This document shows positions 7,100-60,315 of a stretch of 64,000 bases of DNA, piece after piece. The stretch is from Nocardioides sp. (GTDB taxonomy: Bacteria; Actinomycetota; Actinomycetes; Propionibacteriales; Nocardioidaceae), in NCBI RefSeq assembly GCF_035503875.1, contig NZ_DATJTA010000022.1:12607-76606 (forward strand), given 5' to 3'. Both the position numbers and the translations under genes were made by a program. The notes beneath the pieces were generated by a model. The model searched no databases. It was not told the origin of the DNA and worked only from the letters and a program-made list of their open reading frames with translations. Numbering within the stretch: the first letter of the stretch is position 1; the number at the start of each line of letters is the position of its first letter.

Positions 7100-7660
7100 A
7101 CGCTGATTGAGGTGCCCCGAACCTCCGGAGCCCGACCAGCAGGCTGGGGTGAGGGCCGACCGTCGGCTCACCAGGTTTCGAGGCTCGCTCCGCTCGCACC
7201 TCAACCAGCGTCCAGGCAGGCGCTGACACGACGCTGATTGAGGTGCCCCGAAGCGACGCAGGAGCGCAGGGGCCTCGAAACCCCCGCAGCCCGACCAGCA
7301 GGCTGGGGTGAGGGCCGACGGCCGGCTCACCAGGTTTCGAGGCTCGCTCCGCTCGCACCTCAACCAACGTCAGGCAGGCGCTGACACGACGCTGGTTGAG
7401 GTGCCCCGAAGCGACGCAGGAGCGAAGGGGCCTCGAAACCCCCGCAGCCCGACCAGCAGGCTGAGGTGAGGGCCGATCGTCGGCTCACCAGGTTTCGAGG
7501 CTCGCTCCGCTCGCACCTCAACCAGCGTGCCGCTGGCCCCGCTCGCACCTCAACCAGCGTGCCGCCGGCCCCGCTCGCACCTCAACCAGCGTGCCGCCGG
7601 CCCCGCTCGCACCTCAACCAGCGTGCCGGCTCGCTCCGCTCGCACCTCAACCAGCGTGCG
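7100..7660. repeat. Repeat cluster A: three tandem hairpin elements (7100-7211, 7231-7370, 7389-7528) followed by five copies of a 32-33-bp tandem repeat (starts 7509, 7541, 7573, 7605, 7638)
   Basis: Each element runs ACGCTG(A/G)TTGAGGTGC...GGCCTCGAAACC...GGTTTCGAGGCTCGCTCCGCTCGCACCTCAACCA(G/A)CGT. The tandem tail repeats GCTCGCACCTCAACCAGCGTGCCGC(C/T)GGCCCC. Confidence 0.9.
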
Positions 7661-8273
7661 TCAGGGCGCCCAACAACGCCGTCGCCCGCTGCACGACCAG
7701 ATCCACGACGAGCGGGTGCGGTCCGAGCACGTCGGCGACGACGGAGGCTCCGACCGACTCGCGGCGGGTGCGGTCGGCGAAGTACCCCTCGGCGAGCAGG
7801 TACGGCGAGACCGCGTCGCCGGGGCGGACCACGGCGGCCGGGCGGAGTCCCAGTCCGGCGAGGGTGGCGAGCGAGACGGGGCCGCCCCAGGCGCCGGCGA
7901 GCAGGTCGCGGGCGCGGTGCAGGTCGCGCAGGGCGAGCGGGTCGTTCGACCCGGCGGCCACCATCGTCACCGGCTGGCCGGGCCGCGCGCCGCCGGCCAG
8001 CAGCCGGTCGACCTGGGCGGAGGCGAGCAGCGGGTCGGGGCCGAGCGGGCGGGCGCCGCCGAGGTCCTCGCGCACGTGGTAGCCGGTCGACAGCAGCAGC
8101 GGTACGACGACCGACGGCTCGGCCGGGAGCGACGCGTAGAGGGGCGAGCAGAGCTCGACGTACGACGCGACCGCGGGGAGGCCGAGCCGGGAGCCGGCGG
8201 CGGCCGTCAGGGCCCGCGCGACCTCGTTGCCGGTCGCGTGCCGGGTGCCGTGGGCGACCGTCACGAGCCTCAC
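7647..8273 (-). CDS. Sirohydrochlorin chelatase (CbiX/SirB family)
   Basis: VRLVTVAHGTRHATGNEV...VVVPLLLSTGYHV is CbiX-like. The GTG start overlaps the hemD-fusion stop (GTGA). It is the last gene of the nir operon. Confidence 0.8.
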   Translation of the reverse strand: MRLVTVAHGTRHATGNEVARALTAAAGSRLGLPAVASYVELCSPLYASLPAEPSVVVPLLLSTGYHVREDLGGARPLGPDPLLASAQVDRLLAGGARPGQPVTMVAAGSNDPLALRDLHRARDLLAGAWGGPVSLATLAGLGLRPAAVVRPGDAVSPYLLAEGYFADRTRRESVGASVVADVLGPHPLVVDLVVQRATALLGALTHAG

Positions 8274-13600: not shown

Positions 13601-13682
13601 GTCCCCAGCCTCGGCAACCGGCGTAACAGCGACGACATGTCGCCGTACCGCCGTCGTCAACTCTTCCTCACGGCCTCACACC
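13601..13682 (-). promoter_or_regulatory. Conserved 82-nt upstream leader/promoter of the nasB-like-nirBD operon (copy 1 of 2)
   Basis: About 69 of 82 positions (counted by eye) are identical to 17672-17753 upstream of narK. In gene orientation it reads GGTGTGAGGCCGTGAGGA..AGTTGACGAC..CGGTACGGCGACA.G.CG.CG.TGTTACGCC. This includes TTGAC, GGTAC and GTTAC pentamers phased at 11 and 22 bp. Confidence 0.5.
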
Positions 13683-13700
13683 GGAGGTCGCGACGCCCCC

Positions 13701-14088
13701 GGTGGTCGAGCAGAGAAGGACGAAGTCCTGAACGCCCGTCGAGACCCGTCTTGCCAACCACCCACCCCGACCACCCTCACCTGCACGCTGCGGGGGTCTC
13801 GACGGGCACTCGTCGCTAGCGCTCCTCACTGCTCGACCACCGGGCACCGGAGGTCGAGCAGCGAACGGACGAAGTCCTGAGCGACCGTCGAGACCCGTCT
13901 CGCCGACCACCCACCCAGACCACCGTCACCTGCACGCTGCGGGGGTCTCGACGGACATTCGTCGCTGGCGCTCCTCACTGCTCGACCACCAGCCCCGGGG
14001 GCCGAGCAGCGAACGGACGAAGTCCCGCCGTACGCCGACCTAGACCACCCTCACCTGCACGCTGCGGGAGTCTCGACGTTCGACCACC
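13701..14088. repeat. Repeat cluster B (sister family): two full hairpin elements (13701-13840, 13847-13989) and a degenerate third copy (about 13997-14088) overlapping the nasA 3' end
   Basis: Outer arms are GGTGGTCGAGCAG / CTGCTCGACCAC and inner arms are CGTCGAGACCC / GGGTCTCGACG. The internal cassettes AAGGACGAAGTCCTGA and CGTCGCT(A/G)GCGCTCCTC are shared with the main family. Confidence 0.85.
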
Positions 14089-16127
14089 GCGGAAACCGCG
14101 GCGGCGCAGACCTTGAACTCCGGCATCCGGCTGGCGGGGTCGAGGGCGTCGTTGGTGAGCCGGTTCGCGCCGACCCAGTGGAAGGGCACGAAGACCGTGT
14201 CGGGGCGGATCGTGGTGACGACCCGGGCGGGCGCCTTCAGCTCGCCGCGGCGGGTGGCGACGACGATCGGGTCGCCGTCGCGGGCGCCGATCCGGTCGGC
14301 CAACATGGGGTGCAGCTCGACGAACGTGCCGTCGTCGGGGAGGTCGCGGACGCGGCGGGTCTGCGCGCCGGACTGGTACTGCGCGAGCACCCGGCCCGTC
14401 GTCAGGTGCACCGGGTACGACGCGTCCGGCTGCTCGGCGGCGCCGAGGTGGTCGACGTCGACGAAGCGCGCCCGACCGTCGGGGGTGGCGAAGCGGTCGG
14501 CGAAGAGCCGCGGCGTACCCGGGTGCTCCGGCGTCGGGCACGGCCAGAAGACGCCGTCCTCGGCGCGGATCCGCTCGTAGCTGATGCCGGCGTAGTCGGC
14601 TCGCCCGCCCGCGGACGCCCGCCGCAGCTCGGCGAAGACCTCCTCGGGGTCGGTCGGGAACGCGGCGGTCGAGCCGAGCCGCTCGGCCAGGCCGGCCATC
14701 ACGTCGAGGTCGCTGCGCACCCCCTCGGGTGGCGCGACGGCCCGCTCGCGCAGGATCACCCGTCCCTCGAGGTTGGTCATGGTGCCGGACTCCTCGGCCC
14801 ACTGCGTGACCGGGAGTACGACGTCCGCCAGCGCGGCCGTCTCGCTCAGCACGATGTCGGCCACGACGAGCAGCTCGAGCGCGGCCAGCCGCTCCGTGAC
14901 GTGGGTGGCGTTCGGCGCGGAGACGACGATGTTGCTGCCGAAGACGAGCAACGCGGACGACCCGTCCTCGCGGCCCAGCGAGTCGAGGAGCTCGTACGCC
15001 GAGAGCCCCTTGCCCGGCAGCGTCTCCGGCTCGACGCCCCAGACCCGGGCGACGTGCTCGCGGGCGGCCGGGTCGTCGATCATCCGGTAGCCGGGGAGCT
15101 GGTCGGACTTCTGGCCGTGCTCGCGTCCGCCCTGCCCGTTGCCCTGGCCGGTCAGGCAGCCGTAGCCCGCGTGCGGGCGTCCCGGCATGCCCAGCGCGAG
15201 CGCCACGTTCAGCCAGCCCAGCACGGTCGCGGTGCCCTGGCGGTGCTGCTCGGCGCCCCGGGCGGTCAGGACGGTGACCGTCCCCGCGCCGGCGAGCAGC
15301 TCGCCCAATCGCCGCAATTGCGGCGCTTCGACACCGGTCACCCGCTCGACCCGCTCCGGCCACCACGCCGCGGCGGTCCGCCGTACGTCGTCGAAGCCGG
15401 TCGTGCGCGAGGCGAGGTACTCCTCGTCGACGGCGCCCGCCGCGTCGAGCAGGTGCAGGACACCGAGGGCGAGCGCGAGGTCGGTGCCGGGCACCGGCTG
15501 CAGGAAGGTGTCGGCTCGGTCCGCGGTCGGCGTACGACGCGGGTCGATCACCACGACGTGTCCGCCGCGCTCGCGCAGCCGGTCCAGGTGCCGCGCGGCC
15601 GGCGGCATGGTCTCGGCGAGGTTGGAGCCGACCAGCACCAGTACGTCGGTGCCCTCGATGTCGGCCAGCGGGAACGGCAGCCCCCGGTCGATCCCGAACG
15701 CCTGGTTGCCGGCCGTCGCGGCCGACGACATGCACCAGCGGCCGTTGTAGTCGATCCGGCTGGTGCCCAGCGCGGCGCGGGCGAGCTTGCCGAGCAGGTA
15801 GGCCTTCTCGTTGGTCAGCCCGCCACCGCCGAAGATCGCGACCGTGTCCCGACCGCGCTCGGCCTGCAGCCGTCGTACGCCGTCGGCGACGACGTCGAGC
15901 GCCTCGTCCCACGACGCGGCCCGCAGCTCGCCCGTCGCCTGGTCGCGCAGCAGCGGCGTGGTCAGTCGTTCCCGGCTGCCGCGCAGGCCGGTCGCCGTCC
16001 AGCCCTTGCGACACAGCGCGCCCTCGTTGACCGGGAAGTCGCGCGCCCGCACCTCGAGCGCGCGGCCCTCACGGGCGAGGGTCATGCCGCACTGCAGGGA
16101 GCAGTAGGGGCAGTGGGTGTCGGTCAA
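14040..16127 (-). CDS. nasA: Assimilatory nitrate reductase catalytic subunit (molybdopterin oxidoreductase, NasA/NasC type)
   Basis: 695-aa ORF. The TTG start at 16127 is needed to retain the N-terminal 4Fe-4S motif CPYCSLQCG. It has a MopB body and a C-terminal molybdopterin-dinucleotide-binding domain, and starts 6 nt after the narK stop. Confidence 0.9.
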   Translation of the reverse strand: MTDTHCPYCSLQCGMTLAREGRALEVRARDFPVNEGALCRKGWTATGLRGSRERLTTPLLRDQATGELRAASWDEALDVVADGVRRLQAERGRDTVAIFGGGGLTNEKAYLLGKLARAALGTSRIDYNGRWCMSSAATAGNQAFGIDRGLPFPLADIEGTDVLVLVGSNLAETMPPAARHLDRLRERGGHVVVIDPRRTPTADRADTFLQPVPGTDLALALGVLHLLDAAGAVDEEYLASRTTGFDDVRRTAAAWWPERVERVTGVEAPQLRRLGELLAGAGTVTVLTARGAEQHRQGTATVLGWLNVALALGMPGRPHAGYGCLTGQGNGQGGREHGQKSDQLPGYRMIDDPAAREHVARVWGVEPETLPGKGLSAYELLDSLGREDGSSALLVFGSNIVVSAPNATHVTERLAALELLVVADIVLSETAALADVVLPVTQWAEESGTMTNLEGRVILRERAVAPPEGVRSDLDVMAGLAERLGSTAAFPTDPEEVFAELRRASAGGRADYAGISYERIRAEDGVFWPCPTPEHPGTPRLFADRFATPDGRARFVDVDHLGAAEQPDASYPVHLTTGRVLAQYQSGAQTRRVRDLPDDGTFVELHPMLADRIGARDGDPIVVATRRGELKAPARVVTTIRPDTVFVPFHWVGANRLTNDALDPASRMPEFKVCAAAVSAVVERRDSRSVQVRVV

Positions 16128-17671: not shown

Positions 17672-17753
17672 GTCCTCAGCCTCGGAGCCGGGCGTAACAC
17701 CGGCGGCCTGTCGCCGTACCGATGTCGTCAACTTCTCCTCACGGCCTCACACC
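17672..17753 (-). promoter_or_regulatory. Conserved 82-nt upstream leader/promoter of narK-nasA (copy 2 of 2)
   Basis: Paralogous to 13601-13682, with the same TTGAC / GGTAC / GTTAC phasing. It lies 26 nt upstream of the narK ATG and directly abuts repeat element C. Confidence 0.5.
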
Positions 17754-17755
17754 CC

Positions 17756-17885
17756 ACGCTGGTTGAGGTGCGAGCGGAGCGAGCCTCGAAACCCGGTGAG
17801 ACACACGTCGGCCTCGGCTCGGGCTGCTTCTCTGCTCACCGGGTTTCGAGGCTCAGGACTTCGTCCTTCGCACCTCGACCAGCGT
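17756..17885. repeat. Repeat element C: single complete 130-bp hairpin element (best exemplar of the family)
   Basis: ACGCTGGTTGAGGTGCGAGCGGAGCGAGCCTCGAAACCCGGTGAG..(loop)..CTCACCGGGTTTCGAGGCTCAGGACTTCGTCCTTCGCACCTCGACCAGCGT. Confidence 0.9.
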
Positions 17886-22224: not shown

Positions 22225-23541
22225 GTGTCCCCCACCCGTCGCCTGTTCAGCCGCGGCTCGTTCCCCGAAGCCTCGCGCATCACCGAGATCCTGCGCGCCG
22301 AGACCACCGGCGGCCTGCTGCTGATCGTCGGCGCGCTGATCGCGATCGTCTGGTCGAACACCGCCTTCTCCGAGGCGTACGAGAACCTCCGCGACCTGCG
22401 GATCGGCCCGGAGGCCCTCCATCTGAACCTCACCCTCGGCACCTGGGCGGCCGACGGGCTGCTGGCCATCTTCTTCTTCGTCGCCGGACTGGAGCTGAAG
22501 CGCGAGTTCGTCGCGGGTGACCTGCGCGATCCCCGCCGCGCCGCACTGCCCGTAGTCGCGGCGGTCGGCGGGATGGCGATGCCTGCCGTGGTCTACGTCC
22601 TGTGGAACCTCGGCTCCAGCGGCGACCTCGCCGGCTGGGCGATCCCGACCGCCACCGACATCGCGTTCGCCGTCGCGATCCTGGCCGTGATCAGCACGCA
22701 CCTCCCGAGCGGGCTGCGGACGTTCCTGCTGACCCTCGCCGTCGTCGACGACCTGCTGGCCATCACCATCATCGCGATCTTCTACACCGACCACCTGCGG
22801 CCGTCGTACCTCCTCCTCGCGCTGGTGCCGATCGCGCTCTTCGCCGTCCTGGTGCAGCGGCGGATCCGCTCCGGGTGGCTGCTGATCCCGCTGGCCGTCC
22901 TGGCCTGGGTGCTGGTGCACGAGTCGGGCGTGCACGCCACGGTCGCCGGGGTGCTGCTGGGCTTCACCGTGCCGGTGCTGCGCAGCGAGTCGGCCGGCGG
23001 GCCGGAGGCGGGTCCCGGCCTGGCCGAGCACTTCGAGCACCTGGTCAGGCCGATCTCGGCGGGGGTCGCCGTACCCGTCTTCGCGTTCTTCGCCGCCGGC
23101 GTCGACGTGGGCGGGCTCGACGGGCTGAGAAGTGCGCTCACCGACCCGATCGCCCTCGGCATCGTGACCGGGCTGGTCGTGGGCAAGACCCTCGGCATCG
23201 CCGGCTCGACCTGGCTGCTCGCGACCTTCACCCGCGCGGACCTCGACGAGGACCTGTCCTGGGTCGACGTCATCGGCATGGCGATGCTCGCCGGCATCGG
23301 GTTCACCGTCTCCCTGCTCATCGGCGAGCTCGCGTTCGGGAGCGGTACGCCGCAGGACGAGCACGCGAAGGTCGGCGTACTCGTCGGGTCGCTGGTCGCG
23401 ACGCTGCTCGCGACCGTGGTGCTGCGCAGCCGCAACCGGGTCTACCGTCGACTGCACGAGGAGGAGATGCTGGATCTGGACGCGGACGGGGTACCCGACG
23501 TCTACCAGCGCGACGAACGCCGGGAGCAGCCCGGCTTGTAG
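22225..23541 (+). CDS. nhaA: Na+/H+ antiporter NhaA
   Basis: GTG start after AGGAG. The motifs [22 protein letters not shown] and [10 protein letters not shown]...[10 protein letters not shown] are NhaA signatures. Confidence 0.9.
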
Positions 23542-23586
23542 GGTCTGCACGACCAGCGCAACCGCACCAGCAGGGGGACTGCCCGC

Positions 23587-24000
23587 ATGGCCACCGAACC
23601 CGTCCAGGCACCCAGCAAGGACGACCCCACCATCGGTCGCCTCGTCGCCGACGCGAGCCGCGACATCTCGACGCTGATCTCCAAGGAGATCGAGCTCGCG
23701 AAGTCCGAGCTGAAGGTCAGCGTCAAGGCCGGCGGCCTGGGCGTCGCGATGTTCGCCGCGGCCGCCTTCGTCGCCGTGCTCGCCATCATCATGTTCTCGG
23801 TGGCGCTCGCCTACTTCATCAACTGGAACGGCCAGGGGCTCAGCCTGCACTGGGCGTTCCTGATCGTCTTCGCCCTCTACCTCGGGATCGCCGCGCTGCT
23901 GGTCTTCATCGGCGTGAAGAAGGTCAAGCAGGTCGGGCCGCCCGAGAAGGCGATCGAACAGGGCCGCGAGATCCCCAAGGCGTTCAAGGGCATGGCCTGA
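23587..24000 (+). CDS. Small membrane protein of the actinobacterial holin-X / Phage_holin_3_6-like family
   Basis: 137 aa. The motif IGRLVADASRDISTLISKEIELAKSELK is followed by two TM segments, a pattern conserved in housekeeping contexts in actinobacteria. Confidence 0.7.
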   Translation: MATEPVQAPSKDDPTIGRLVADASRDISTLISKEIELAKSELKVSVKAGGLGVAMFAAAAFVAVLAIIMFSVALAYFINWNGQGLSLHWAFLIVFALYLGIAALLVFIGVKKVKQVGPPEKAIEQGREIPKAFKGMA

Positions 24001-24033
24001 CGTACGACGGACCCGGTGGGGGCTGCTTGTCGG

Positions 24034-24127
24034 CTCACGGGGTTTCGAGGCTCACCCGCTAGCGCGGCTTCGCACCTCAACCAGCGTGGGGCCACCCGCT
24101 AGCGCGGCTTCGCACCTCAACCAGCGT
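24034..24127. repeat. Repeat cluster D: loop plus right arm, then a second right-arm fragment
   Basis: CTCACGGGGTTTCGAGGCTCACCCGCTAGCGCGGCTTCGCACCTCAACCAGCGT is followed by GGGGCCACCCGCTAGCGCGGCTTCGCACCTCAACCAGCGT. The cluster ends exactly at the marP stop codon. Confidence 0.85.
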
Positions 24128-25302
24128 CAGCCGGCGCACTCGCCGGTCGAGACCTCGCTGCTGCGGGCGCGGCCCTCGGCCGCGGTGTCGGCGACCTGCG
24201 CAGCGGTGAGGGCGTAGCCGGTGTCCTTGTCGGTGACCGAGGCGGCGAACACCACGCCGACGACGTCGCCGTCGCGCTCGACGATCGGACCGCCGGAGTT
24301 GCCGGGACGGACGAGCCCGCGCAGGGAGAAGACCTCGCGGATGACCGAGCCGCGGCCGTAGATGTCGGGGGACCGCAGCCGCTGCTCGGCCCGGATCCGG
24401 GCGGCCTGCGCGTCGTACGGGCCGTCCTGGGGGTAGCCCAGGATCACGACCGGGTCGCCCGCCTGGGCACCCTGGTCGAAGCGGAGCGTGGCCCGGCCCT
24501 GCGCGTCGAGCTGCAGCACGGCGAGGTCGAGCTGCGGGTCGTAGAGCACGACCGTGGCGGGGACCGACTCCTCGCCGAGCAGCACCTCGGGATCGTCGAC
24601 GCCGGCGACCACGTGGGCGTTGGTGATCAGCCGGTCCTCGGCGTACAGGAAGCCGGTGCCCTCGACGCCGCGGCCGCAGCGGTTCGTGGCCCGGACCTTC
24701 AGCACGCTCTCCTGGGCGACGCGCACGCGGCGCTTCTCCAGCAGCTTGCTGTCGCCCGGCGCGACCTCGACGATCCGCTCGGGGGCGAACGGCTCGAGGT
24801 AGCGCGGGAAGAAGCTGGTGCCGACGACGTCGTTGAAGGTGCTCAGCACGCCGGGCGCCGACTGCGGCAGCACGCTGTTGACCTTGGCGAGCACCGTCGA
24901 CTCGCGGACCATCGGGGTGACCTGGCCGATCCGGCTGCCGGAGACGGCGACGCCGAGCGCCCACGCGACGAGCAGCACGGCGGCCGCGCTGAGCAACGCA
25001 CCGCCGACGGCGTCGATGGCCCGGATCGGCTGCCAGGTGATCCGGTTGCGGATCCTCGCGCCGACGAACTGGAACAGCGCCTGGCCGAGCGACGCCGCGA
25101 GGATCACGATGAACAGCGCGCCCAGCGAGACCCACGTCGAGGGAGAGGCCTCCCCCAGCGCGACCGGCGCGAGCCAGACCCCGAACAGGCCTCCGAGCAG
25201 CAGCCCCGCAGTCGCGAAGGCGCCTGTGATGAAGCCCTGCCAGTAGCCGGAGAGGGCGTAGGCGACGACCAGGGCCACCAGCAGCCAGTCCAGCAGGTTC
25301 AT
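24127..25302 (-). CDS. marP: MarP-family membrane serine protease (CvpA-like TM domain plus trypsin-like domain)
   Basis: The N-terminus MNLLDWLLVALVVAYALSGYWQGF has four TMs. The protease domain has TNAHVV, DLAVLQ and GNSGGPIV (catalytic triad context). Confidence 0.85.
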   Translation of the reverse strand: MNLLDWLLVALVVAYALSGYWQGFITGAFATAGLLLGGLFGVWLAPVALGEASPSTWVSLGALFIVILAASLGQALFQFVGARIRNRITWQPIRAIDAVGGALLSAAAVLLVAWALGVAVSGSRIGQVTPMVRESTVLAKVNSVLPQSAPGVLSTFNDVVGTSFFPRYLEPFAPERIVEVAPGDSKLLEKRRVRVAQESVLKVRATNRCGRGVEGTGFLYAEDRLITNAHVVAGVDDPEVLLGEESVPATVVLYDPQLDLAVLQLDAQGRATLRFDQGAQAGDPVVILGYPQDGPYDAQAARIRAEQRLRSPDIYGRGSVIREVFSLRGLVRPGNSGGPIVERDGDVVGVVFAASVTDKDTGYALTAAQVADTAAEGRARSSEVSTGECAG

Positions 25303-34417: not shown

Positions 34418-34427
34418 CCGTCCCCCG

Positions 34428-34716
34428 CCGGTTGAGGTGCGAAGGACGAAGTCCTGAGCCTCGAAACCCGGCGAGTCAACCGACAGCCTCGATCAGCGCC
34501 ACCTCTCGGCAAGACCGGTTTCGAGGCTCGCTCCGCTCACACCTCAACCAGCGTCGATGACCGCTGGTTGAGGCGCGAAGGACGAAGTCCTGAGCCTCGA
34601 AACCCGCTCCAACCGGCAAGACGGGTTTCGAGGCTCGCTCCGCTCGCACCTCAACCAGCGTCCCTCGACGCTGGTTGAGGTGCGAGGAGCGCTAGCGACG
34701 AGCCTCGAAACCCGGT
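34428..34716. repeat. Repeat cluster E: two full hairpin elements (34428-34553, 34562-34660) plus a left-arm half element (34668-34716) overlapping the 3' end of the MBL hydrolase gene
   Basis: The arms are CGGTTGAGGTGCGAAGGACGAAGTCCTGAGCCTCGAAACCC...GGTTTCGAGGCTCGCTCCGCTC(A/G)CACCTCAACCAGCGT. The half element is ACGCTGGTTGAGGTGCGAGGAGCGCTAGCGACGAGCCTCGAAACCC. Confidence 0.9.
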
Positions 34717-35531
34717 GAGCCGGCGAGATACGCCAACTGGGCGCGGACGGACATCTCGGCGGCGAACCACACCGACTGGTCGACGTCGGCGTACACGACC
34801 TCGACGACGCGGCGGGGCAGGGTGTCGTCCTCGGCGAGCTCGGGGGTGAGGGGTACGGCGAGCTCGCGGAGCGCGGACTCGACCTGGCCGAGCCGCTCGC
34901 GGCGGTGCACCAGGTAGTGGTCGAGCACGGCGCCGGCGTCGTCGAGCACGGGACCGTGCGCGGGCCAGATCGCCTCGACCTCGCCGGCGGCGACCAGCGC
35001 GCGCATCTTCTCGATCGAGTCGAAGTAGGGACCGAGCTGGCCGTCGGGGTGGGCGACGACCGTCGTACCGCGGCCGAGGACCATGTCGCCGGAGAGCAGC
35101 GCCTTCTGCGCCGGCAGCACGAGCGAGATGGAGTCGGCGGTGTGGCCGGGCGTCGTGACGACCCGCAGCGCCAGTCCGTCGACGTCGAGGAGCTCGCCGT
35201 CGGCGACCGGGTCCGCGCGGAAGCAGTACGCCGGGTCGAACGCGCGGACCGCGCAGCCCTTGGCCTCGGCGAACGCGACCGCCACCTCGGAGTGGTCGAA
35301 GTGGTGGTGGGTGAGCAGCACCAGGCCGACCTCGCCGGTCTCCTCGACCAGCCGGTCGAGGTGTCCGTCCTCGACCGGACCGGGGTCGATCACGATGGCG
35401 CGGGCGGCGCCGTCGGAGGAGGGCTCGCGCAGCACCCAGGTGTTGGTGCCGTCGAGCGTCATCACGCCGGGGTTGGGCGCGAGCAGGCACTCCGCGCGCG
35501 GCGGGAATTCGCCGCCCGACCAGGGGGTCAC
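34692..35531 (-). CDS. MBL-fold metallo-hydrolase (Rv3677c-like)
   Basis: ORF 34692..36203 trimmed to GTG 35531, which overlaps the upstream stop (GTGA). The sequence reads VTPWSGGEFPPRAECLLAPNPGVMTLDGTNTWVL and carries the metal motif THHHFDHSE. Confidence 0.85.
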   Translation of the reverse strand: MTPWSGGEFPPRAECLLAPNPGVMTLDGTNTWVLREPSSDGAARAIVIDPGPVEDGHLDRLVEETGEVGLVLLTHHHFDHSEVAVAFAEAKGCAVRAFDPAYCFRADPVADGELLDVDGLALRVVTTPGHTADSISLVLPAQKALLSGDMVLGRGTTVVAHPDGQLGPYFDSIEKMRALVAAGEVEAIWPAHGPVLDDAGAVLDHYLVHRRERLGQVESALRELAVPLTPELAEDDTLPRRVVEVVYADVDQSVWFAAEMSVRAQLAYLAGSPGFEARR

Positions 35532-36394
35532 CCGCGGCGTTCCTTCAGCAGCGGCCGGAGCCGGTCGGGCATGGAGAGGGTCCAACCGTCGCCGAGCGGC
35601 TCGACGCTCGGCGTGAACATCTCCACGCTCCGCCCGGCCGCCACGTCGAGCACCTCCGCCGGGGAGGCGTGGGTGCCGATCTCGAGGCTGGTGAGGTACG
35701 TCGGCGGCATCAGCGCGAGCTCGCCCGCCTCGGCCTGGTCGGCGGCGACCCGGGCCGGGAGCCAGGTCACCGAGGACGACTCCGTCGACACGTCGCGGGT
35801 GCGCTGGCCCTCGGGCAGCAGGGCGACGAAGAACCAGGTGCGGAACCGCTTCGGCTCGAAGATCGGCGTCAGCCAGGCGTCCCAGACGCCGAGCAGGTCG
35901 GTGCGCAGCACCAGCCCGCGACGGTTCAGGAAGTCGGTCATCGCCAGCTCGCGCGACTCCAGGGCGACCCGGTCGGCCTCCCAGTCGGGGCCGGTGGTGT
36001 CGGCCACGACGGTCGTCGCGGAGGTGCCGGCGAGCAGCACCCCGGACTCCTCGAAGGTCTCCCGCACCGCTGCGGCGACCAGGGCGCGGGCGGTCTCCTC
36101 GTCGCAGTGCAGGCGCGCGGCCCACTCGGCGGGCGATGGTCCCGCCCAGCCGACGGTGGCGTCGAAGTCGCGCGGGTCCACGCCGCCGCCCGGGTAGACG
36201 CACATGCCCCCGGCGAAGTCCATCGTCACGTGGCGACGCATGTAGTAGACCTCGGGTCCCTGCTCCGAGGGACGCATGAGGACGACGGTCGCGGCGTCGC
36301 GCGGCTCGACCGGCGTACGGCGGCCGTCGTCGTACTCCTGCGCGACGGCGACGATCTTCTCGGGCAGCGGGACGGGGGGCAGCGGGATGCGCAC
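35528..36394 (-). CDS. NUDIX-family hydrolase-like protein
   Basis: ORF trimmed to GTG 36394, 3 nt after the RidA stop. It has a Nudix-like segment GGGVDPRD...AAVRETFEESGVLLA. Confidence 0.75.
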   Translation of the reverse strand: MRIPLPPVPLPEKIVAVAQEYDDGRRTPVEPRDAATVVLMRPSEQGPEVYYMRRHVTMDFAGGMCVYPGGGVDPRDFDATVGWAGPSPAEWAARLHCDEETARALVAAAVRETFEESGVLLAGTSATTVVADTTGPDWEADRVALESRELAMTDFLNRRGLVLRTDLLGVWDAWLTPIFEPKRFRTWFFVALLPEGQRTRDVSTESSSVTWLPARVAADQAEAGELALMPPTYLTSLEIGTHASPAEVLDVAAGRSVEMFTPSVEPLGDGWTLSMPDRLRPLLKERRG

Positions 36395-37100: not shown

Positions 37101-38264
37101 GTGGTCCTCGTGGATCCGGAGCGGCAGCCGTGGCGGCTGGACGAGCGCCGCCGGCGCTGGTTCGACCTGGGCCTGGTCGGCGTCCTGCTGCTGCCGGTGC
37201 CGCCGCTCGGCGTCTCCGTCGGGCTCGTGAGCGCCGGCCTCTCCCTGCTCCAGATCGCGCCCCTGGTCGTACGCCGGCGCTGGCCGGTCGCGGTCTTCGC
37301 CGCGGTGGCCGTCGCCAGCCTGCTCCAGGCGGTCGTCGTCGACGAGCCCGTGTGGGGCCAGGTCGCGTTCCCGGTCGCGGTCTACTCGGTGGCCCGGTTC
37401 TCGCGCGCGCTCCCCGCGGCCGTCGCCCTGGCGGTCGGCATCTGCGGGGCGCTGGTGGCGTCGTACGACTGGCTGCAGGAGTTCGACCAGCTCACGCCGT
37501 CGGCGTACGTCTCCTACGTGCTGTTCATCTCCGCGATCGTCGCCACCGCGTGGGCGCTGGGCACGCTCGGGCGCACCCGGGCGGCGTACGTCGCCGCACT
37601 GGTCGAGCGCGGCGAGCAGATCCGGCGCGAGGCCGCCCAGCAGGTCGAGCTCGCCGCCGGGGAGGAGCGGTCCCGGATCGCCCGCGAGATGCACGACGTG
37701 GTCGCGCACGGGCTGTCGGTGATCGTCGTCCAGGCCGACGGCGCGCGGTACGCCGCCGCCCGGGACCCCGACATCGCGGCACGCACCCTCGAGACGGTCG
37801 CCGCGACCGGACGCGAGGCGCTGACCGAGATGCGGCGGATGCTGGGGCTGCTCCGCGCCGGCGACACCGGCACCCGGCCACAGCCGCGGCTCGACGACGT
37901 GGCCGTGCTGGTCGCGGAGGCGCAGACCGCCGGCGAGGACGTCGAGGCGACGCTGCCGCCGCCCGACGCGGCCGCGACGGTGCCCGCGGGCGTCGCGCTG
38001 ACGGCGTACCGCGTGGTCCAGGAAGCGCTCACCAACGTCCGCAAGCACGCCGGGCCCGGTGCGCGGACCCGGGTCGTGGTCAGCGTCGGGCCGGCCATCG
38101 AGGTGCTGGTCGAGGACGACGGCCGCGGCGCCGCGAGCGCCGACGACGGCCGCGGGCTCGGGCTGGTCGGCATGCGCGAACGGGTCGCCGTCCACGACGG
38201 GACCTTGACGGCCGGACCCCGGCCCGGGGGCGGCTTCCGGGTGTCGGCGAGGCTGCCCCTGTGA
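37101..38264 (+). CDS. Sensor histidine kinase, HisKA_3 (NarL-partner) class, module 1
   Basis: It has N-terminal TM segments, the H-box EERSRIAREMHDVVAHGLS, and HATPase_c motifs (EALTNVRKHA, VEDDGRG, GLGLVGMRERV). Confidence 0.85.
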   Translation: MVLVDPERQPWRLDERRRRWFDLGLVGVLLLPVPPLGVSVGLVSAGLSLLQIAPLVVRRRWPVAVFAAVAVASLLQAVVVDEPVWGQVAFPVAVYSVARFSRALPAAVALAVGICGALVASYDWLQEFDQLTPSAYVSYVLFISAIVATAWALGTLGRTRAAYVAALVERGEQIRREAAQQVELAAGEERSRIAREMHDVVAHGLSVIVVQADGARYAAARDPDIAARTLETVAATGREALTEMRRMLGLLRAGDTGTRPQPRLDDVAVLVAEAQTAGEDVEATLPPPDAAATVPAGVALTAYRVVQEALTNVRKHAGPGARTRVVVSVGPAIEVLVEDDGRGAASADDGRGLGLVGMRERVAVHDGTLTAGPRPGGGFRVSARLPL

Positions 38265-38938
38265 CTGGAACCGTGAGCGAGCCGATCCGCGTCTTCCTCG
38301 TCGACGACCAGCAGATGGTCCGTGCCGGGTTCACGATGCTCGTCGACAGCCAGCCCGACCTGCTGGTGGTCGGCGAGGCGGGCGACGGCGCGGAGGCGCT
38401 CGAGCGCCTGGCCGTCACCCGCGCGGACGTCGTACTCATGGACGTGCGGATGCCCCGGATGGACGGCGTCGAGGCGACCCGTCAGCTGGCCGCCCGGCCG
38501 GACGCGCCGCGGGTGATCGTGCTGACGACCTTCGACCTCGACGAGTACGCCTTCGCCGCGATCAAGGCCGGCGCCGCGGCGTTCCTGCTCAAGGACGCCG
38601 CTCCGCCCGACCTGCTCAACGCGATCCGCTCCGTGTACGCCGGCGACGCCGTCGTCGCGCCCAGCACCACCCGGCGGCTGCTGGAGCACTTCGCCGCCAC
38701 CCTCCCCGACCCGACTTCCGCCGCCACCGAGGACCAGCGCCTGGCCGGACTCACCGAGCGCGAGCGCGAGGTGCTGGTCCTGATCGGCCGCGGCCTCTCC
38801 AACACCGAGCTCGCCGCCCACCTGGTCGTCGCCGAGGCGACCGTGAAGACGCACGTCAGCCGGCTGCTCGCCAAGACCGGCTCGCGCGACCGGGTGCAGC
38901 TCGTCGTCCTGGCGTACGAGTCGGGGCTGGTCGGGTAG
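38261..38938 (+). CDS. LuxR/NarL family response regulator, module 1
   Basis: GTG 38261 overlaps the kinase stop (alternative GTG 38273). It has the receiver IRVFLVDDQQMVRAG...DVVLMDVRMPRMDG and the LuxR HTH LTEREREVLVLIGRGLSNTELAAHLVVAEATVKTHVSRLL. Confidence 0.9.
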   Translation: MTGTVSEPIRVFLVDDQQMVRAGFTMLVDSQPDLLVVGEAGDGAEALERLAVTRADVVLMDVRMPRMDGVEATRQLAARPDAPRVIVLTTFDLDEYAFAAIKAGAAAFLLKDAAPPDLLNAIRSVYAGDAVVAPSTTRRLLEHFAATLPDPTSAATEDQRLAGLTEREREVLVLIGRGLSNTELAAHLVVAEATVKTHVSRLLAKTGSRDRVQLVVLAYESGLVG

Positions 38939-38949
38939 CGAGTCCGGCC

Positions 38950-39478
38950 CGATCGACGCCGACTCTCGGCCCACCGGGTTTCGAGGCTCGTCGCTAGCGC
39001 TCCTCACACCTCAACCAGCGTGGACGCCGACGACGCTGGTTGAGGTGCGAGGGCCTCCAGGCCCGAGCCTCGAAACCCGTCTTGCCGACCGACGACCACG
39101 ACCGACGCCGACTCTCGGCCCACCGGGTTTCGAGGCTCGTCGCTGGCGCTCCTCACACCTCAACCAGCGTGGATCTCCTCGTCGCTGGCGCTCCTCACAC
39201 CTCAACCAGCGTGGACGCCGAGGACGCTGGTTGAGGTGCGAGGGCCGCCAGGCCCGAGCCTCGAAACCCGTCTTGCCGACCGACGGCCCCGATCGACGCA
39301 GACTCTCCACCCACCGGGTTTCGAGGCTCGTCGCTAGCGCTCCTCACACCTCAACCAGCGTGGATCTCCTCGTCGCTGGCGCTCCTCACACCTCAACCAG
39401 CGTGGACGCCGAGGACTCTGGTTGAGGTGCGAGGGCCGCCAGGCCCGAGCCTCGAAACCCGTCTTGCCGACCGACGAC
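38950..39478. repeat. Repeat cluster F: higher-order tandem array with an exact 191-bp period (left arms start at 39033, 39224, 39415)
   Basis: Each unit is one full hairpin element plus an extra right-arm fragment. The full element has a left arm with cassette GGGCC(T/G)CCAGGCCCGA and a right arm with cassette CGTCGCT(A/G)GCGCTCCTC. The extra fragment is GGATCTCCTCGTCGCTGGCGCTCCTCACACCTCAACCAGCGT. Confidence 0.9.
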
Positions 39479-39563
39479 CTCGACCGCTGTCATCCCTGGG
39501 TCGTACGACGGACCAGTCTCCGGCCTGACGATCCGAGGGGCCGAGATCCGAAGACTCGTCGGC

Positions 39564-40313
39564 ATGACGCAGACAGCCCTTCCCTCCACCTCCACGACCG
39601 CGGCGAGTGCGCGCGGCCTGACCCGCACCTACGGCCGGGGTGACGCGCAGGTGCACGCGCTGCGCGGCGTCGACCTGGACGTCCCGGCCGGGCGGTTCAC
39701 GGCGATCATGGGTCCGTCCGGCTCGGGCAAGTCGACGCTGATGCACTGCCTCGCCGGTCTCGACCAGCCCACGTCCGGGACGGTGACGGTCGCCGGGCAG
39801 GACCTGGAGTCGATGAACGACGACCGGCTGACGATCTTCCGGCGCGAGCACCTCGGCTTCGTCTTCCAGTCCTTCAACCTGCTGCCGATGCTGACCGCAG
39901 GGCAGAACATCCTGCTGCCCCTGGAGCTCGCCGGCCGCCCGGTCGACCGAGAGCGCTACGACCTGCTCGCGGCCACCCTCGGGCTCGGCGACCGGCTCGG
40001 GCACCGGCCCAGCGAGCTGTCGGGCGGTCAGCAGCAGCGGGTCGCGATCGCCCGCGCGCTGATCACCAGCCCGGCGATCGTCTTCGCCGACGAGCCGACC
40101 GGCAACCTCGACAGCGAGTCGTCGGCCGAGGTGCTCGGCGTCCTGCGTCAGTCGGTGCGCGAGCTCGGCCAGACCGTCGTGATGGTGACCCACGAGCTGG
40201 ACGCGGCGGCGTACGCCGACGACGTCGTGGTGATCGCCGACGGCGCCGTGCGCGCGCACCTCGTCGACCCGACCGCCGACGAGCTGGTCGCGACGCTGCG
40301 GGGCGAGCGATGA
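39564..40313 (+). CDS. ABC transporter ATP-binding protein (MacB/FtsE-like), module 1
   Basis: Walker A GPSGSGKST, signature LSGGQQQRVAIARAL, Walker B IVFADEPTGNLD. Confidence 0.9.
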   Translation: MTQTALPSTSTTAASARGLTRTYGRGDAQVHALRGVDLDVPAGRFTAIMGPSGSGKSTLMHCLAGLDQPTSGTVTVAGQDLESMNDDRLTIFRREHLGFVFQSFNLLPMLTAGQNILLPLELAGRPVDRERYDLLAATLGLGDRLGHRPSELSGGQQQRVAIARALITSPAIVFADEPTGNLDSESSAEVLGVLRQSVRELGQTVVMVTHELDAAAYADDVVVIADGAVRAHLVDPTADELVATLRGER

Positions 40314-42709
40314 GGACCGTGCTGCTCGCATCGATGCGCGTCCACGCCCGGCGGTACGTCGCCGCTGCGGTCGCGATCGTCATCGGCGTCTCGTTCGTCG
40401 TGGTGACCAGCGCACTCTCGTCGGCCACCAAGGACGGCCTGGTCGCCGGGGTCGGTCTGCCGTACCGGGGCGCCGACTCGGTGGTCTCCGAGATCGGTGG
40501 CGACGACGCCGCGGAGGTCGTACGGCGGGCCGCGGACGTCGGCGACAGCGCCGCCGTGCTCGGCTACGTCACGCTGCCGGTCACCTCCGACGGCGCCGTC
40601 GTCGACCAGGACGCCGACGTCGCGGCCGTCGCCGACGACACGGCCCTGCGCTGGCAGGAGCTGCGCGACGGCGACTGGCCGTCCGGGCCGGGCGAGGCGG
40701 TCGCGGACCTCAACGACGCCAAGTCCAACGGTCTGGAGATCGGGGACCGGGTGCGGGTCGGCGCCGGGAGTCGCGCCGTCGAGGCCGAGGTCGTGGGCTT
40801 GGTCGACAGCCCGGCTGCCACTGCCGGGGCGTCGCTGTACCTGCCCTGGTCCGACGTGGCGCGCTGGACGTCGAGCATCTACGTGGACAGCGTCGCGTAC
40901 GCCGGCGACGGGGCCGAGTCCGCCGCGCGCGGCACCGGTGCCCTCGTCCAGCCGGCCGACGAGTTCGTCCAGGACCGGCAGGCCGAGCTCACCCGCGAGG
41001 TCGACGTGATCGCCATCCTGCTGCTGGTCTTCGCCGTGATCGCCCTGTTCGTGTCGGTGCTGGTCATCGCCAACACCTTCTCGATCCTGTTCGCCCAGCG
41101 GCAGCGCGACCTCGCCCTGCTGCGCTGCGTCGGCGCGACCCGGCGTCAGCTGCTCCGCTCGATCCGGGTCGAGGCGCTCGCGCTCGGCGCGGCCTCGGCC
41201 GGGCTGGGCCTGGTCGTCGGGACGGCGCTCGGCTACGCGCTGGTGGCGATCGCCCGCGGCCAGCTGCCGACCGGCACCATGGGCGACGCCGCCGTCTCGC
41301 CCAGCTGGTACGCCGGCGCGTTCGCGGTCGGCCTGCTCGTCACCGTGGTTGCCGCCTGGCTGCCAACTCGCAAGGTGGTGCAGGTCAGCCCGCTGGCCGC
41401 CCTGCGCCCCGACACCGGGGTCGACGTCCGCAGCGCCTCGGGCCGGGTCCGCACCGCCGCCGGCGTACTGCTGATCCTCGGCGGTGCCGCGCTCCTCGGC
41501 GTGGCGGTCTCCGCCCACGAGGTGGTGGCGATGCTGGCCGGCGGGACGCTCGCGTTCACCGGGGTCCTGGTCCTCGGCCCGCTGGTCGTGCCCGCGCTGG
41601 TCCGCGCGGCCGGGTCGCTCGGCCGCGGCACCACCGCACGGCTCGCCACCGGCAACGCGGTGCGCAACCCGCGTCGTACGGCCGCGACCACGGCGTCCCT
41701 GCTCGTCGGCGTCACCCTCACCACCGCCGTGCTGACCGGGCTCGCGAGCTCGCGCAGCTCGGTCGACGACGACATGAACGTCTCGCACCCGGTCGACATG
41801 GCACTGACCTCGGCGTCGGCACCGCTGCCCGACACCCTGCTCGCGGACGTCAGGGCGACCTCGGGCGTGCACGCCGCGGTCGCGCTCGACGGCGCGGTCG
41901 CCGAGATCGCCGGCATCGGGAAGCTCCCGGTCGTGGCCTCCCGCCCGGCGACGGACGTCGTCCGCGACGACACCGTCGCCCTGCCCGAGCCCGGGGTGAT
42001 CTCGCTGCCGTACGACGTGCTGCCGGACGGCGAGATCCCCGCGCGGGTCGCGGTCTCGGTCGACGGCCGCACCGAGCGGTTGCGCGTCTCGACCGGCGAG
42101 GGCTGGGGCGAGGCCGGACTGGTCGCGTCCGAGACGCTCGCCCGGCTGGTCGCCCAGCCGCTGCCGCACGCGGTGTGGGTGCGCGCCGACGACGCGGCCG
42201 ACGCCGAGGACCTCGCCGGTGACCTGGGTGCACTCGCCACCAACGCCGACGCCGACCTCGCGGACGGGCTGGCGGCTCGCGCGTGGGTCGAGCTGCAGCT
42301 CGACGTGCTCGCCGGCGCGGTGGTGGCCCTGCTCGGGATCGCTGTGGTGATCGCCCTGGTCGGCATCGCCAACACCCTCGGCCTGTCGGTGCTCGAACGG
42401 GCCCGGGAGAACGCCCTGCTCCGGGCGCTCGGCCTGACCCGCCGCCAGCTGCGCCGGATGCTGGCCGCCGAGGCCGTGCTGCTCTCGGTGGTCGCCACGG
42501 TGCTCGGCACGCTGATCGGCGTGGTGTTCGCCTGGGTCGCCGTACGGACCCTGGTCGGCGCGGCGGTCGACGACGCGGCGGTGGTGCTGCCGTGGGGCCA
42601 GCTCGCGATCGTCGTCCTGGTCGCCGGCGTCGCCGGCCTGCTGGCCGGGGTGCTTCCGTCCAGGCGGGCAGCGAGAGTAGCGCCAGCAGCCGGGTTGTCC
42701 CTCGACTGA
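40310..42709 (+). CDS. ABC transporter permease with two FtsX-like domains, module 1
   Basis: 799 aa. The ATG overlaps the ATPase stop (ATGA). FtsX-type TM bundles are repeated, each ending in the ...R.E.ALLRA/CVGATRRQL motif. Confidence 0.85.
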   Translation: MRTVLLASMRVHARRYVAAAVAIVIGVSFVVVTSALSSATKDGLVAGVGLPYRGADSVVSEIGGDDAAEVVRRAADVGDSAAVLGYVTLPVTSDGAVVDQDADVAAVADDTALRWQELRDGDWPSGPGEAVADLNDAKSNGLEIGDRVRVGAGSRAVEAEVVGLVDSPAATAGASLYLPWSDVARWTSSIYVDSVAYAGDGAESAARGTGALVQPADEFVQDRQAELTREVDVIAILLLVFAVIALFVSVLVIANTFSILFAQRQRDLALLRCVGATRRQLLRSIRVEALALGAASAGLGLVVGTALGYALVAIARGQLPTGTMGDAAVSPSWYAGAFAVGLLVTVVAAWLPTRKVVQVSPLAALRPDTGVDVRSASGRVRTAAGVLLILGGAALLGVAVSAHEVVAMLAGGTLAFTGVLVLGPLVVPALVRAAGSLGRGTTARLATGNAVRNPRRTAATTASLLVGVTLTTAVLTGLASSRSSVDDDMNVSHPVDMALTSASAPLPDTLLADVRATSGVHAAVALDGAVAEIAGIGKLPVVASRPATDVVRDDTVALPEPGVISLPYDVLPDGEIPARVAVSVDGRTERLRVSTGEGWGEAGLVASETLARLVAQPLPHAVWVRADDAADAEDLAGDLGALATNADADLADGLAARAWVELQLDVLAGAVVALLGIAVVIALVGIANTLGLSVLERARENALLRALGLTRRQLRRMLAAEAVLLSVVATVLGTLIGVVFAWVAVRTLVGAAVDDAAVVLPWGQLAIVVLVAGVAGLLAGVLPSRRAARVAPAAGLSLD

Positions 42710-48492: not shown

Positions 48493-48816
48493 ATGGCGTA
48501 CGACGAGCAGCTGGCCGCCCGGGTCCGCGAGACGCTCCAGGGGCACGGCCCGGTCGAGGAGAAGGCGATGTTCGGCGGCCGGGGCTTCCTGGTCGGCGGC
48601 AGCCTCGCGGTCTGCGCGAGCCACGACGGCGGGCTGCTCGTCCGCGTCGACGCCGCCGACCAGGAGGCGCTGCTCGGCGAGCACGTCGTACCGATGGAGA
48701 TGGGCGCGCGCATCTCGCGCACCTGGGTCCGGGTCGCCCCGGGCGACCTCGGGCCGGGCCGGCTCGAGGCGTGGGTCGAGCGTGGGACCGCGACCGCCGA
48801 GGGCCTGGCCCGCTGA
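48493..48816 (+). CDS. TfoX/Sxy N-terminal domain family protein
   Basis: MAYDEQLAARVRETLQGHGPVEEKAMFGGRGFLVGGSLAV is TfoX_N-like. Confidence 0.75.
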   Translation: MAYDEQLAARVRETLQGHGPVEEKAMFGGRGFLVGGSLAVCASHDGGLLVRVDAADQEALLGEHVVPMEMGARISRTWVRVAPGDLGPGRLEAWVERGTATAEGLAR

Positions 48817-59641: not shown

Positions 59642-60315
59642 TCCGGGTCGTGGTCGCCGACGACCAGCCGATGGTGCGCGCCGGCCTGACCGCCCTGCTC
59701 GACGCGGCACCCGACATCGAGGTCGTCGCCGCGGTGGCGGACGGCCGCGCAGCCGTCGACGCTGCCCGGGAGCACCGCGTCGACGTGGTGTGCACCGACA
59801 TCCGGATGCCCGGCTTCGACGGCATCTCCGCGACCCGGGAGCTGAGCGGTCCCGACGTCGAGGAGCCGGTCGCGGTCCTGGTGCTGACGACCTTCGACCT
59901 CGACGAGTACCTCTTCGGCGCGCTGGAGGCCGGCGCGTCCGGCTTCCTGCTGAAGGACGCCGAGCCGGAGGAGCTCGTCGCCGCGGTCCGCTCGGTCGCC
60001 GCCGGCAACGGCACCATCGACACCTCGCTCACGAAGCGGGTGCTGCGCGAGGTGGTCACCCGTCGGGGCACCCGGCCGGTCGTGGCGAGCCCGGAGAACG
60101 GCCGCGCCACCGACCTGCTCACCGCACGCGAGCTGGACATCCTGCTGCTGCTCGCGCAGGGGATGGCGAACGAGGAGATCGCCGCCGAGCTCACCCTCGA
60201 GGTGTCGACGGTGAAGTCCCACCTGGCCCGGATGATGCCCAAGCTCGGTGTCCGCTCGCGGCTCCAGGCCGCGGTCTGGGCGTACCAGAACCGGATCGTC
60301 GAGGTCCCCGGCTGA
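59638..60315 (+). CDS. LuxR/NarL family response regulator, module 2
   Basis: The start overlaps the kinase stop. It has the receiver IRVVVADDQPMVRAG...DVVCTDIRMPGFDG and the HTH LTARELDILLLLAQGMANEEIAAELTLEVSTVKSHLARMM. Confidence 0.9.
   Translation: MIRVVVADDQPMVRAGLTALLDAAPDIEVVAAVADGRAAVDAAREHRVDVVCTDIRMPGFDGISATRELSGPDVEEPVAVLVLTTFDLDEYLFGALEAGASGFLLKDAEPEELVAAVRSVAAGNGTIDTSLTKRVLREVVTRRGTRPVVASPENGRATDLLTARELDILLLLAQGMANEEIAAELTLEVSTVKSHLARMMPKLGVRSRLQAAVWAYQNRIVEVPG

Follow-up and report, generated by a model that had tools for sequence, protein, structure and literature searches.

A family of intergenic hairpin repeats in Nocardioides and the small GIY-YIG nuclease of which they are probably the DNA sites

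A 64,000-nt stretch of DNA from Nocardioides sp. (contig NZ_DATJTA010000022.1), referred to below as the window and used for all coordinates, carries a family of hairpin-forming repeats between its genes, and raises the question of what the basic unit of this family is and which enzyme, if any, acts on it. An earlier note on the sequence had described modular palindromes of ~130 bp resembling BOX elements or REPINs (doublets of repetitive extragenic palindromic, or REP, sequences), had taken the copy at 17756-17885 as its exemplar, and had suggested as partner a REP-associated tyrosine transposase (RAYT) or an IS200/IS605 TnpA. The analysis reported here leads to a different unit and a different partner. 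The units probably serve as cognate sites on the DNA for a small GIY-YIG nuclease with a single domain, encoded elsewhere, by a gene that is itself bracketed by such units, and this enzyme would nick single-stranded DNA with specificity for one strand, as judged from gene association and from homology to the neisserial nuclease SsnA.

The repeat family itself is readily delimited. The outer arm ACGCTGGTTGAGGTGCG matches the window 27 times at up to 3 mismatches, against 0.39 expected by chance, and the inner arm GCCTCGAAACCC 19 times at up to 1 mismatch, against 0.40 expected; no shuffle came near either count. A covariance model (R1), trained on copies from other genomes and on three copies from cluster F of the window, recovered 21 complete units at E < 1e-5, every one within six clusters (A to F, Table 1), and gave no credible match elsewhere in the window. 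These counts bear out the claim of a modular hairpin family at six or more intergenic sites. A module map reproduced all five interchangeable cassettes (a to e) where they had been placed, and located the proposed sister family at 13700-14089 (cluster B); the cluster sites held as well, with the limits of clusters E and F corrected to 34425-34716 and 38973-39463.

The elementary unit is not the 130-bp palindrome but the half-element, consisting of an outer arm, a cassette and an inner arm, which folds on itself; the palindrome is a doublet of two such units, and single units are the commonest arrangement, accounting for 65 of 186 clusters across the genus. Units are 42-56 nt long (42-51 nt in the main family, and up to 56 nt with long variant cassettes), with the consensus 5'-CG(S)TGGTT-GAGG-TGCGA-[tip mini-hairpin]-GAG-CCTC-GA-AACC(ACCG)-3'. 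In a position matrix of 294 arms, conservation starts at C-G-(C/G)-T-G-G, and the ACCG that often trails the consensus lets CGGTGGTT pair with AACCACCG. The unit forms an imperfect hairpin with conserved unpaired or non-Watson-Crick G and A residues, a pattern confined to one strand. The cassettes are exchangeable, as had been proposed, but they form the tips of the half-unit hairpins and turn into side branches only in doublets folded as one long stem. These tips are mini-hairpins with G(N)NA loops closed by C-G, invariably set between A and GA, with a short form GCGNAGC and long forms with 5-bp stems; in the exemplar, cassette a of the left unit reads A, tip mini-hairpin GCGGAGC, GA, and cassette b of the right unit reads AGGAC-GAA-GTCCT. 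Inverted doublets, arrays with 158- and 191-bp periods, and tandem partial copies of outer arm and tip all occur in the window.

Folding and covariation support this structure. The segment 17746-17895, which contains the exemplar, folds to -101.2 kcal/mol on the + strand (z = -9.5) and -96.2 kcal/mol on the - strand (z = -8.0), in agreement with the description of the exemplar as a long palindrome. In an alignment of 53 distinct copies, 85% of cells pair, and two-sided changes occur in 55 cells, compared with 14.3 +/- 2.8 for shuffles and no more than 13 for slid controls. Covariation extends to all five tip pairs, and columns 9 and 42 switch between T-A and C-G five times with zero non-pairs. 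The lower stem admits two pairings, either a GA bulge with GAGG paired to CCTC, or an uninterrupted helix that contains tandem sheared G-A pairs; its positions are invariant within Nocardioides, and comparison across families is ambiguous. Two structures that such a hairpin could call to mind were rejected: a kink-turn RNA, as the bulge and the G-A pairs do not adjoin and the units show no strand preference with respect to transcription, and an integron attC site, as the order of the core motif is reversed (GTTGAGG...CCTCAAC, not ...AAC...GTT...), there are no cassette open reading frames (ORFs) and no integrase, and orientation alternates. The resemblance to attC sites, which are recognized as folded single strands, extends by eye to imperfect palindromes that vary at their centre and have conserved unpaired bases.

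The partner gene was sought by all-against-all clustering of the ORFs in 945 kb of repeat-anchored loci, which returned mostly common paralogue families and one recurrent small family directly between units, a GIY-YIG nuclease of ~100-130 aa with a single domain (PF01541, E = 1e-15 to 6e-17), for which NCBIfam holds no model. Three loci picked by the repeat alone carry this gene between units, and at six of six loci picked solely for the similarity of their protein (N. plantarum, Nocardioides sp. R1-1, Pimelobacter simplex, N. thalensis and two metagenome contigs) it is bracketed by units with window-type arms. Bracketing was thus found in all nine Nocardioidaceae-type loci examined, with unrelated neighbouring genes in every one. 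The usual layout is a sense unit, 30-110 nt, the nuclease ORF and an antisense unit. Arm variants follow the locus: the N. plantarum nuclease gene has the compensated arms GGTCGAGG / CCTCGAGACC, and that of metagenome locus L160 is bracketed by arms of the window sister family (cluster B type). The most compact copy, from N. thalensis (L121, 2930-3384), spans ~455 bp and consists of a hairpin, a 110-aa GIY-YIG ORF and an inverted hairpin; it interrupts an HNH/DUF222-like ORF, with an ISL3 transposase gene ~1 kb away, and the flanks of the interrupted ORF are in frame, former contiguity of this site being not demonstrable. The units are physically linked to a small nuclease gene that is conserved and apparently active, and it is this gene, rather than the suggested RAYT or TnpA, that lies between them.

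A nuclease gene set between hairpins was already known from Neisseria meningitidis. There, SsnA, a 94-aa single-domain GIY-YIG protein (CDD cd10448), is encoded between copies of the NTS hairpin repeat, hundreds more of which are scattered in the genome; SsnA binds NTS only as single-stranded DNA and on one strand only, cuts a few bases upstream, and reduces transformation by NTS-bearing DNA (Chenal et al. 2025, Nat Commun 16:2388; PMC11893778). The same study reported that mutation of Y6, Y17 or E64 abolishes SsnA cleavage, that a degenerate pattern of NTS-like repeats (SRM) is found near 71% of homologues and on both sides of 42%, and that Ssn proteins co-evolve with their sites, and drew a parallel with RAYTs, REPs and bacterial interspersed mosaic elements (BIMEs) (PMC11893778); its main text mentions neither actinobacteria nor UPF0213. 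With this architecture published, the kind of system found here is one already described. Hence the novelty claimed for the window family stands for its sequence, which passes no curated Rfam threshold and for which searches returned no paper, and not for its kind, described in 2025 as Ssn/NTS (PMC11893778).

The Nocardioides system resembles Ssn/NTS in its small single-domain GIY-YIG protein (~95-115 aa in Ssn), in a gene bracketed by 20-50-nt hairpin repeats, and in repeats that are directional, numerous and mostly intergenic. The window family has these repeat features, and the bracketing holds at the nine loci with window-type arms, the gene itself lying outside the window. Residues Y5, Y15 and E64 are invariant in 18 sequences of the nuclease clade and align with Y6, Y17 and E64 of SsnA. 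The Nocardioides nuclease is 30% identical over 69 aa (E = 3e-10) to the SsnA orthologue of N. gonorrhoeae, whose gene is flanked by NTS, and hhalign gives a probability of 97% against SsnA. The gonococcal sequence used (L204, NZ_CP119142.1) is a 2.17-Mb replicon filed as plasmid, in which the ssnA orthologue appears frameshifted near its start, with the listed ORF beginning at an internal TTG and the YILASQRNG stretch in another frame.

By contrast, Ssn proteins are defined by cd10448 or by a close blastp match to SsnA (E < 1e-10, 75% coverage), and the Nocardioides nuclease falls outside this definition, the choice between cd10448 and cd10456 being judged by proxy. UPF0213 references outscore SsnA with all 89 clade proteins (on average 63.6 versus 40.9 bits). 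The best matches of solved structure are the UPF0213 proteins BH0048 (PDB 1ZG2, E = 1.2e-20, 42% identity to the Nocardioides nuclease) and EF2693 (PDB 1YWL, E = 2.7e-16), both deposited as hypothetical proteins only; the next is SLX1 (E ~2e-4), which differs in being a eukaryotic enzyme of several domains, with branched double-stranded DNA as its substrate. The hairpins also depart from NTS in their YGAG...CGAR core, their two tiers and their swappable or nested tips, and the hosts, unlike those of Ssn as described in the main text, include Gram-positive Actinomycetota. The nuclease and its hairpins are most likely a sister branch of Ssn/NTS, which would work alike while standing outside the family as published.

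This relationship can be followed beyond Nocardioidaceae. An alignment of 18 nuclease proteins retrieved 583 metagenomic relatives, of which the best 80, spanning 33-73% G+C, were analysed. Repeats shared between the two flanks and scoring at least 40 were present in inverted orientation in 39 of 69 loci and in direct orientation in 34 of 69, compared with none of 69 in shuffles. The flanking hairpins follow a common grammar of stem, YGAG, optional tier and tip, CGAR, and stem. Their density is 3.07 per kb up to 300 nt from the ORF and 0.20 per kb beyond, a 15-fold difference (shuffles gave 1 match); at least one is present in 55 of the 80 loci, and 35 loci have them on both sides, with an orientation bias toward sense upstream (47:23) and antisense downstream (42:24). 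Different hosts carry different forms of the hairpin: GGTGGTTGAGGTGCGA-tip-GAGCCTCGAAACCACC in Nocardioides, GGTTGAGTAG-tip-GTATCGAAACC in other actinobacterial types, CATCCTGAGGAG-tip-CGTCTCGAAGGATG in alphaproteobacterial types, and minimal 21-mers such as CCCTGAGCTTGTCGAAGGG in low-GC genomes. A plasmid collection contained few homologues, in Methylobacterium and Sphingomonas, on large replicons, and both are hairpin-flanked.

Four loci (L176, L189, L190 and L203) show a complete small YGAG...CGAR unit as the tip of a larger unit, which suggests that the tip position is a site of insertion or replacement. Between the upstream hairpin and the nuclease start, 25 of 85 loci contain a DnaA-box-like 9-mer (TTATCCACA, TTGTCCACA or nnGTCCACA), compared with ~3.7 expected; it is nearly restricted to high-GC loci and lies at a fixed distance, ~-59 to -61 in sense or -45 to -49 in antisense (L052, L081, L089, L118-L120, L124, L125, L128, L130, L135-L139, L141, L144, L160, L166, L194 and others). 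Somewhat speculatively, at chances that we would put a little below even, the UPF0213-like clade and the YGAG...CGAR hairpins might form a second, unreported partnership parallel to Ssn/NTS across Actinomycetota, Alphaproteobacteria and low-GC phyla, in which units are both built and remodelled by small hairpins inserted in their tips, and in which expression of the actinobacterial nuclease is tied to replication through the DnaA-box-like site.

The window-type units are widespread among relatives of the source genome. An exact-pattern search of one genome per species found more than 116 matching stretches, nearly all, among the matches listed, in Nocardioides, Marmoricola or unclassified Actinomycetota, and many genomes of Nocardioides, Marmoricola and Pimelobacter contain units; the family is therefore not confined to the window, and it is not conserved coding sequence. 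Exact matches beyond Nocardioidaceae, among those listed, were found in Gordonia amarae (L075) and in a metagenome-assembled genome labelled Candidatus Eremiobacteraeota (L054), the latter with an array of at least 6 units; horizontal transfer or a mis-binned contig could account for them.

Clusters lie between convergent genes in 31 of 94 cases (33%), compared with 113 of 686 background gaps (16%), and also between tandem and divergent gene pairs, the exemplar occupying a divergent promoter region. Many units are less than 30 nt from a stop codon, and in ~13 of 94 cases the neighbouring ORF stops at the TGA within GGTTGA. The view that all copies lie between genes is accordingly nearly right for the window, with three qualifications: the stop codon of the minus-strand ORF 7647-8273 is the TGA within the last outer arm of the cluster A tail, the last ~9 codons and the stop of ORF 34692-35585 (the CTAG of cassette c) come from the single unit of cluster E, and ORF 24127-25302 has a stop codon whose first base is also the last base of the cluster D arm.

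Orthologous regions of close relatives differ in their repeats. With ~97% identical flanks, relative L001 carries at the exemplar a left tip unlike that of the window and an additional outer arm; save for one base substitution in the right inner arm, its centre and right unit match those of the window. Its cluster B has one extra unit. Metagenome contig L206, 99.8% identical to the window, lacks one 191-bp period of cluster F. Two Logan contigs, L205 (window 22458-24066, 100% identical) and L207 (7629-9773, 100% identical), end inside repeat units, which indicates that the family fragments metagenome assemblies and that differences in array length may partly be assembly artefacts. In practice, the repeats fragment short-read assemblies, and array length varies between near-identical strains.

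A mechanism can be proposed in which a putative nuclease gene, bracketed by units, resides elsewhere in the source genome. Its product would recognize one strand of the unit when the DNA becomes single-stranded during replication, recombination, repair or DNA entry, and, as homology to SsnA leads one to expect, would nick near the recognized unit. Repair and gene conversion among copies would then swap tips in place, duplicate partial units in tandem and resize arrays, the nuclease thereby contributing to the spread and remodelling of the units. At the level of the host, the system could control single-stranded DNA that enters the cell or recombines, as in Neisseria, and it might be of some benefit.

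Several observations weigh against this proposal. Identity to SsnA is only 30%, and the GIY-YIG gene is not among the called ORFs of the window, to which the search was limited. The published SRM pattern, HGTCWYN(0-2)YYVSBRHN(0-5)WNVSBRGN(0-2)RNCYNB (PMC11893778), which gave 6 matches in 1.3 kb in a Neisseria control, matches no window unit and none of the flanks of the Nocardioides nuclease gene; its single match in the window lies inside coding sequence, at the level of shuffles (0-4), and it was found in 1 of the 80 metagenome loci. The array-length differences were seen in short-read metagenome assemblies, where collapse of repeats could have produced them. GIY-YIG enzymes are DNA hydrolases for which no rejoining activity is known, and such activity does not account for the arrival of units at new sites. 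Finally, the association between gene and repeats fits both a nuclease that acts on the repeats and a selfish nuclease gene that homes into them.

If the gene were such a homing-type passenger, inserting in the centres of doublets and taking no part in making or spreading gene-less units, it would be expected at the position of the doublet variable centre, where it indeed always lies; it is also confined to one to few contigs per protein cluster while units are many, and classical homing endonucleases are found among the GIY-YIG enzymes. A homing gene with hundreds of potential targets, however, should be multi-copy, and the arm variants track the locus (GGTCGAGG/CCTCGAGACC in N. plantarum, sister-family arms at L160), suggesting co-evolution of protein and site as reported for Ssn pairs (PMC11893778), so that we regard homing as quite improbable. 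Unlikely, too, is an account in which the nuclease gene is merely a frequent neighbour of elements selected by the host as bidirectional terminators or mRNA-stabilizing hairpins. The great stability of the hairpins, the twofold enrichment between convergent genes and the many units within 30 nt of a stop codon are what it predicts, and units may have a secondary role as terminators. Yet single units lie in either orientation to transcription without bias (11 sense and 8 antisense), divergent promoter regions such as that of the exemplar contain units as well, T or U tracts are absent, the conserved G/A pattern is on one strand only, and selection of this kind cannot account for the bracketing of one gene family in nine of nine unrelated neighbourhoods.

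Transposase-based origins fare worse against the same data. Classical REPs or REPINs mobilized in trans by a RAYT, an IS200/IS605-type transposase of the Y1 HUH class, would likewise appear as imperfect palindromes in singles, inverted doublets and mosaics, with enrichment between convergent genes (33% versus 16%). We nevertheless consider such mobilization highly improbable: the only recurrent small gene between units in 945 kb encodes the GIY-YIG nuclease, the 5' end of the unit is CG(S)TGG and not the REP tetranucleotide GTAG, and no Y1_Tnp or other transposase, and no integrase, is found among the called window ORFs, as the earlier note had observed for transposases (whole genomes were not searched). 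That the units are miniature inverted-repeat transposable elements derived from a DDE insertion sequence, with the outer arms as terminal inverted repeats, is hardly credible. Doublets with 17-bp inverted ends and a high copy number would suit this origin, but single half-units are the commonest form, target-site duplications are absent, the distribution of duplication lengths in 113 isolated units being that of a shifted control (unit boundaries being somewhat uncertain), and no insertion sequence bounded by such arms was encountered, the copies of IS481 and ISL3 in L118 and L121 being unrelated insertions.

Units recognized by a GIY-YIG nuclease would nevertheless have much in common with REP systems, for which the background of REPs, REPINs, BIMEs and RAYTs is reportedly to be found in the work of Nunvar (2010), of Ton-Hoang (2012), and of Bertels and Rainey. 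Short imperfect palindromes in the window and its relatives form singles, inverted doublets and alternating mosaic clusters enriched at gene ends, and the partner gene is repeat-flanked and low in copy number, as in REP/RAYT pairs. The differences are that the partner is a GIY-YIG hydrolase and not a Y1 HUH transposase, and so performs no covalent cut-and-rejoin, that the 5' GTAG is missing, and that the family spans a whole bacterial family rather than one species. What survives of the REPIN/BOX-like interpretation is thus a structured, dispersed, REP/REPIN/BIME-like family with exchangeable modules, its account of the unit, of the partner enzyme and of how new the system is having been revised. 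At curated Rfam thresholds only tRNA-Pro passes in the window, and a permissive search of cluster E gave only sub-threshold matches to eukaryotic microRNA-precursor models and other unrelated families. Literature searches returned no publication on the arm sequence or on Nocardioides REP elements, and those combining GIY-YIG with REP, MITE or RAYT returned unrelated papers, apart from the Ssn paper (PMC11893778).

If the proposed partnership is real, the principle of a very small GIY-YIG nuclease that reads hairpins as single-stranded DNA would extend beyond the cd10448 Ssn family and its mostly Gram-negative hosts to a second protein clade, which has been catalogued as "UPF0213, function unknown" and would have a hairpin grammar of its own in soil actinobacteria and other phyla. 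A large set of orphan proteins would gain a testable function, some of the most common intergenic repeats of high-GC genomes, and the spurious ORFs that can be called across arrays, would have their origin explained, and the catalogue of sequence-specific single-stranded-DNA nucleases, which are sought as molecular tools, would be enlarged.

Table 1. Repeat features of the window, with positions in window coordinates and strands where assigned
Feature	Position	Strand	Remarks
Cluster A, array	7100-7528	both	158-bp period; from arm map and covariance model
Cluster A, lone outer arm	7100-7116	+	
Cluster A, complete units	7170-7211(-), 7231-7286(+), 7329-7370(-), 7389-7444(+), 7487-7528(-)	both	+ strand units bear the long variant cassette
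Cluster A, tail	7531-7657	-	4 direct outer-arm-only copies, period ~32 nt
Cluster A, tail outer arms	7544-7560, 7576-7592, 7608-7624, 7641-7657	-	
Cluster B, sister family	13699-14090	both	arms GGTCGAGCAG / CGTCGAGACCC; cassettes b and c
Cluster B, units	13699-13750(+), 13791-13843(-), ~13848-13899(+), 13940-13992(-)	both	
Cluster B, partial units	13996-14028(+), 14065-14090(-)	both	
Cluster C (exemplar), left unit	17756-17797	+	covariance-model match 46.8 bits, E = 3.9e-11
Exemplar, left unit parts	17756-17772, 17773-17782, 17783-17794	+	outer arm, cassette a, inner arm
Exemplar, doublet variable centre	17798-17837	unstranded	stem lengthened by GGTGAG/CTCACC pair
Exemplar, right unit (inverted)	17838-17885	-	covariance-model match 48.2 bits, E = 1.5e-11
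Exemplar, right unit parts	17841-17852, 17853-17868, 17869-17885	-	inner arm, cassette b, outer arm
Cluster D, complete unit	24037-24087	-	cassette e; covariance-model match 52.2 bits
Cluster D, partial unit	24093-24127	-	cassette e and outer arm, without inner arm; direct duplicate, 40 nt further on
Cluster E, five units	34425-34472(+), 34513-34554(-), 34561-34608(+), 34620-34661(-), 34668-34716(+)	both	34425-34716; two doublets (centres 46 and 17 nt by arm-map definition) and one single unit
Cluster F, array	38973-39463	both	191-bp period
Cluster F, units	38973-39021(-), 39033-39081(+), 39122-39170(-), 39224-39272(+), 39313-39361(-), 39415-39463(+)	both	
Cluster F, partial cassette and outer-arm copies	39178-39212(-), 39369-39403(-)	-	

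The window, at 73% G+C, otherwise contains ordinary chromosomal genes, including those for nitrate assimilation, acetate uptake, acetyl-CoA synthetase, WhiB, a class A penicillin-binding protein, Crp, endonuclease III and two-component systems. An ORF at 48493-48816 (+) encodes a TfoX N-terminal domain, which is known from competence regulators, and may be relevant here given the effect of SsnA on natural transformation. Two paralogous modules (37101-42709 and 58385-63058) each comprise a DUF7134/HisKA_3 kinase, a LuxR-type response regulator, an ABC ATPase and an FtsX permease, and in the first of them cluster F separates the regulator gene from the ABC gene. Directly adjoining clusters B and C are near-identical stretches of ~65 nt (13620-13680 and 17690-17755; GGCGTAACA..GACATGTCGCCGTACC..GTCGTCAAC..CCTCACGGCCTCACACC), located upstream of minus-strand nitrite-reductase-like and MFS transporter genes, which presumably resemble GlnR operator boxes.

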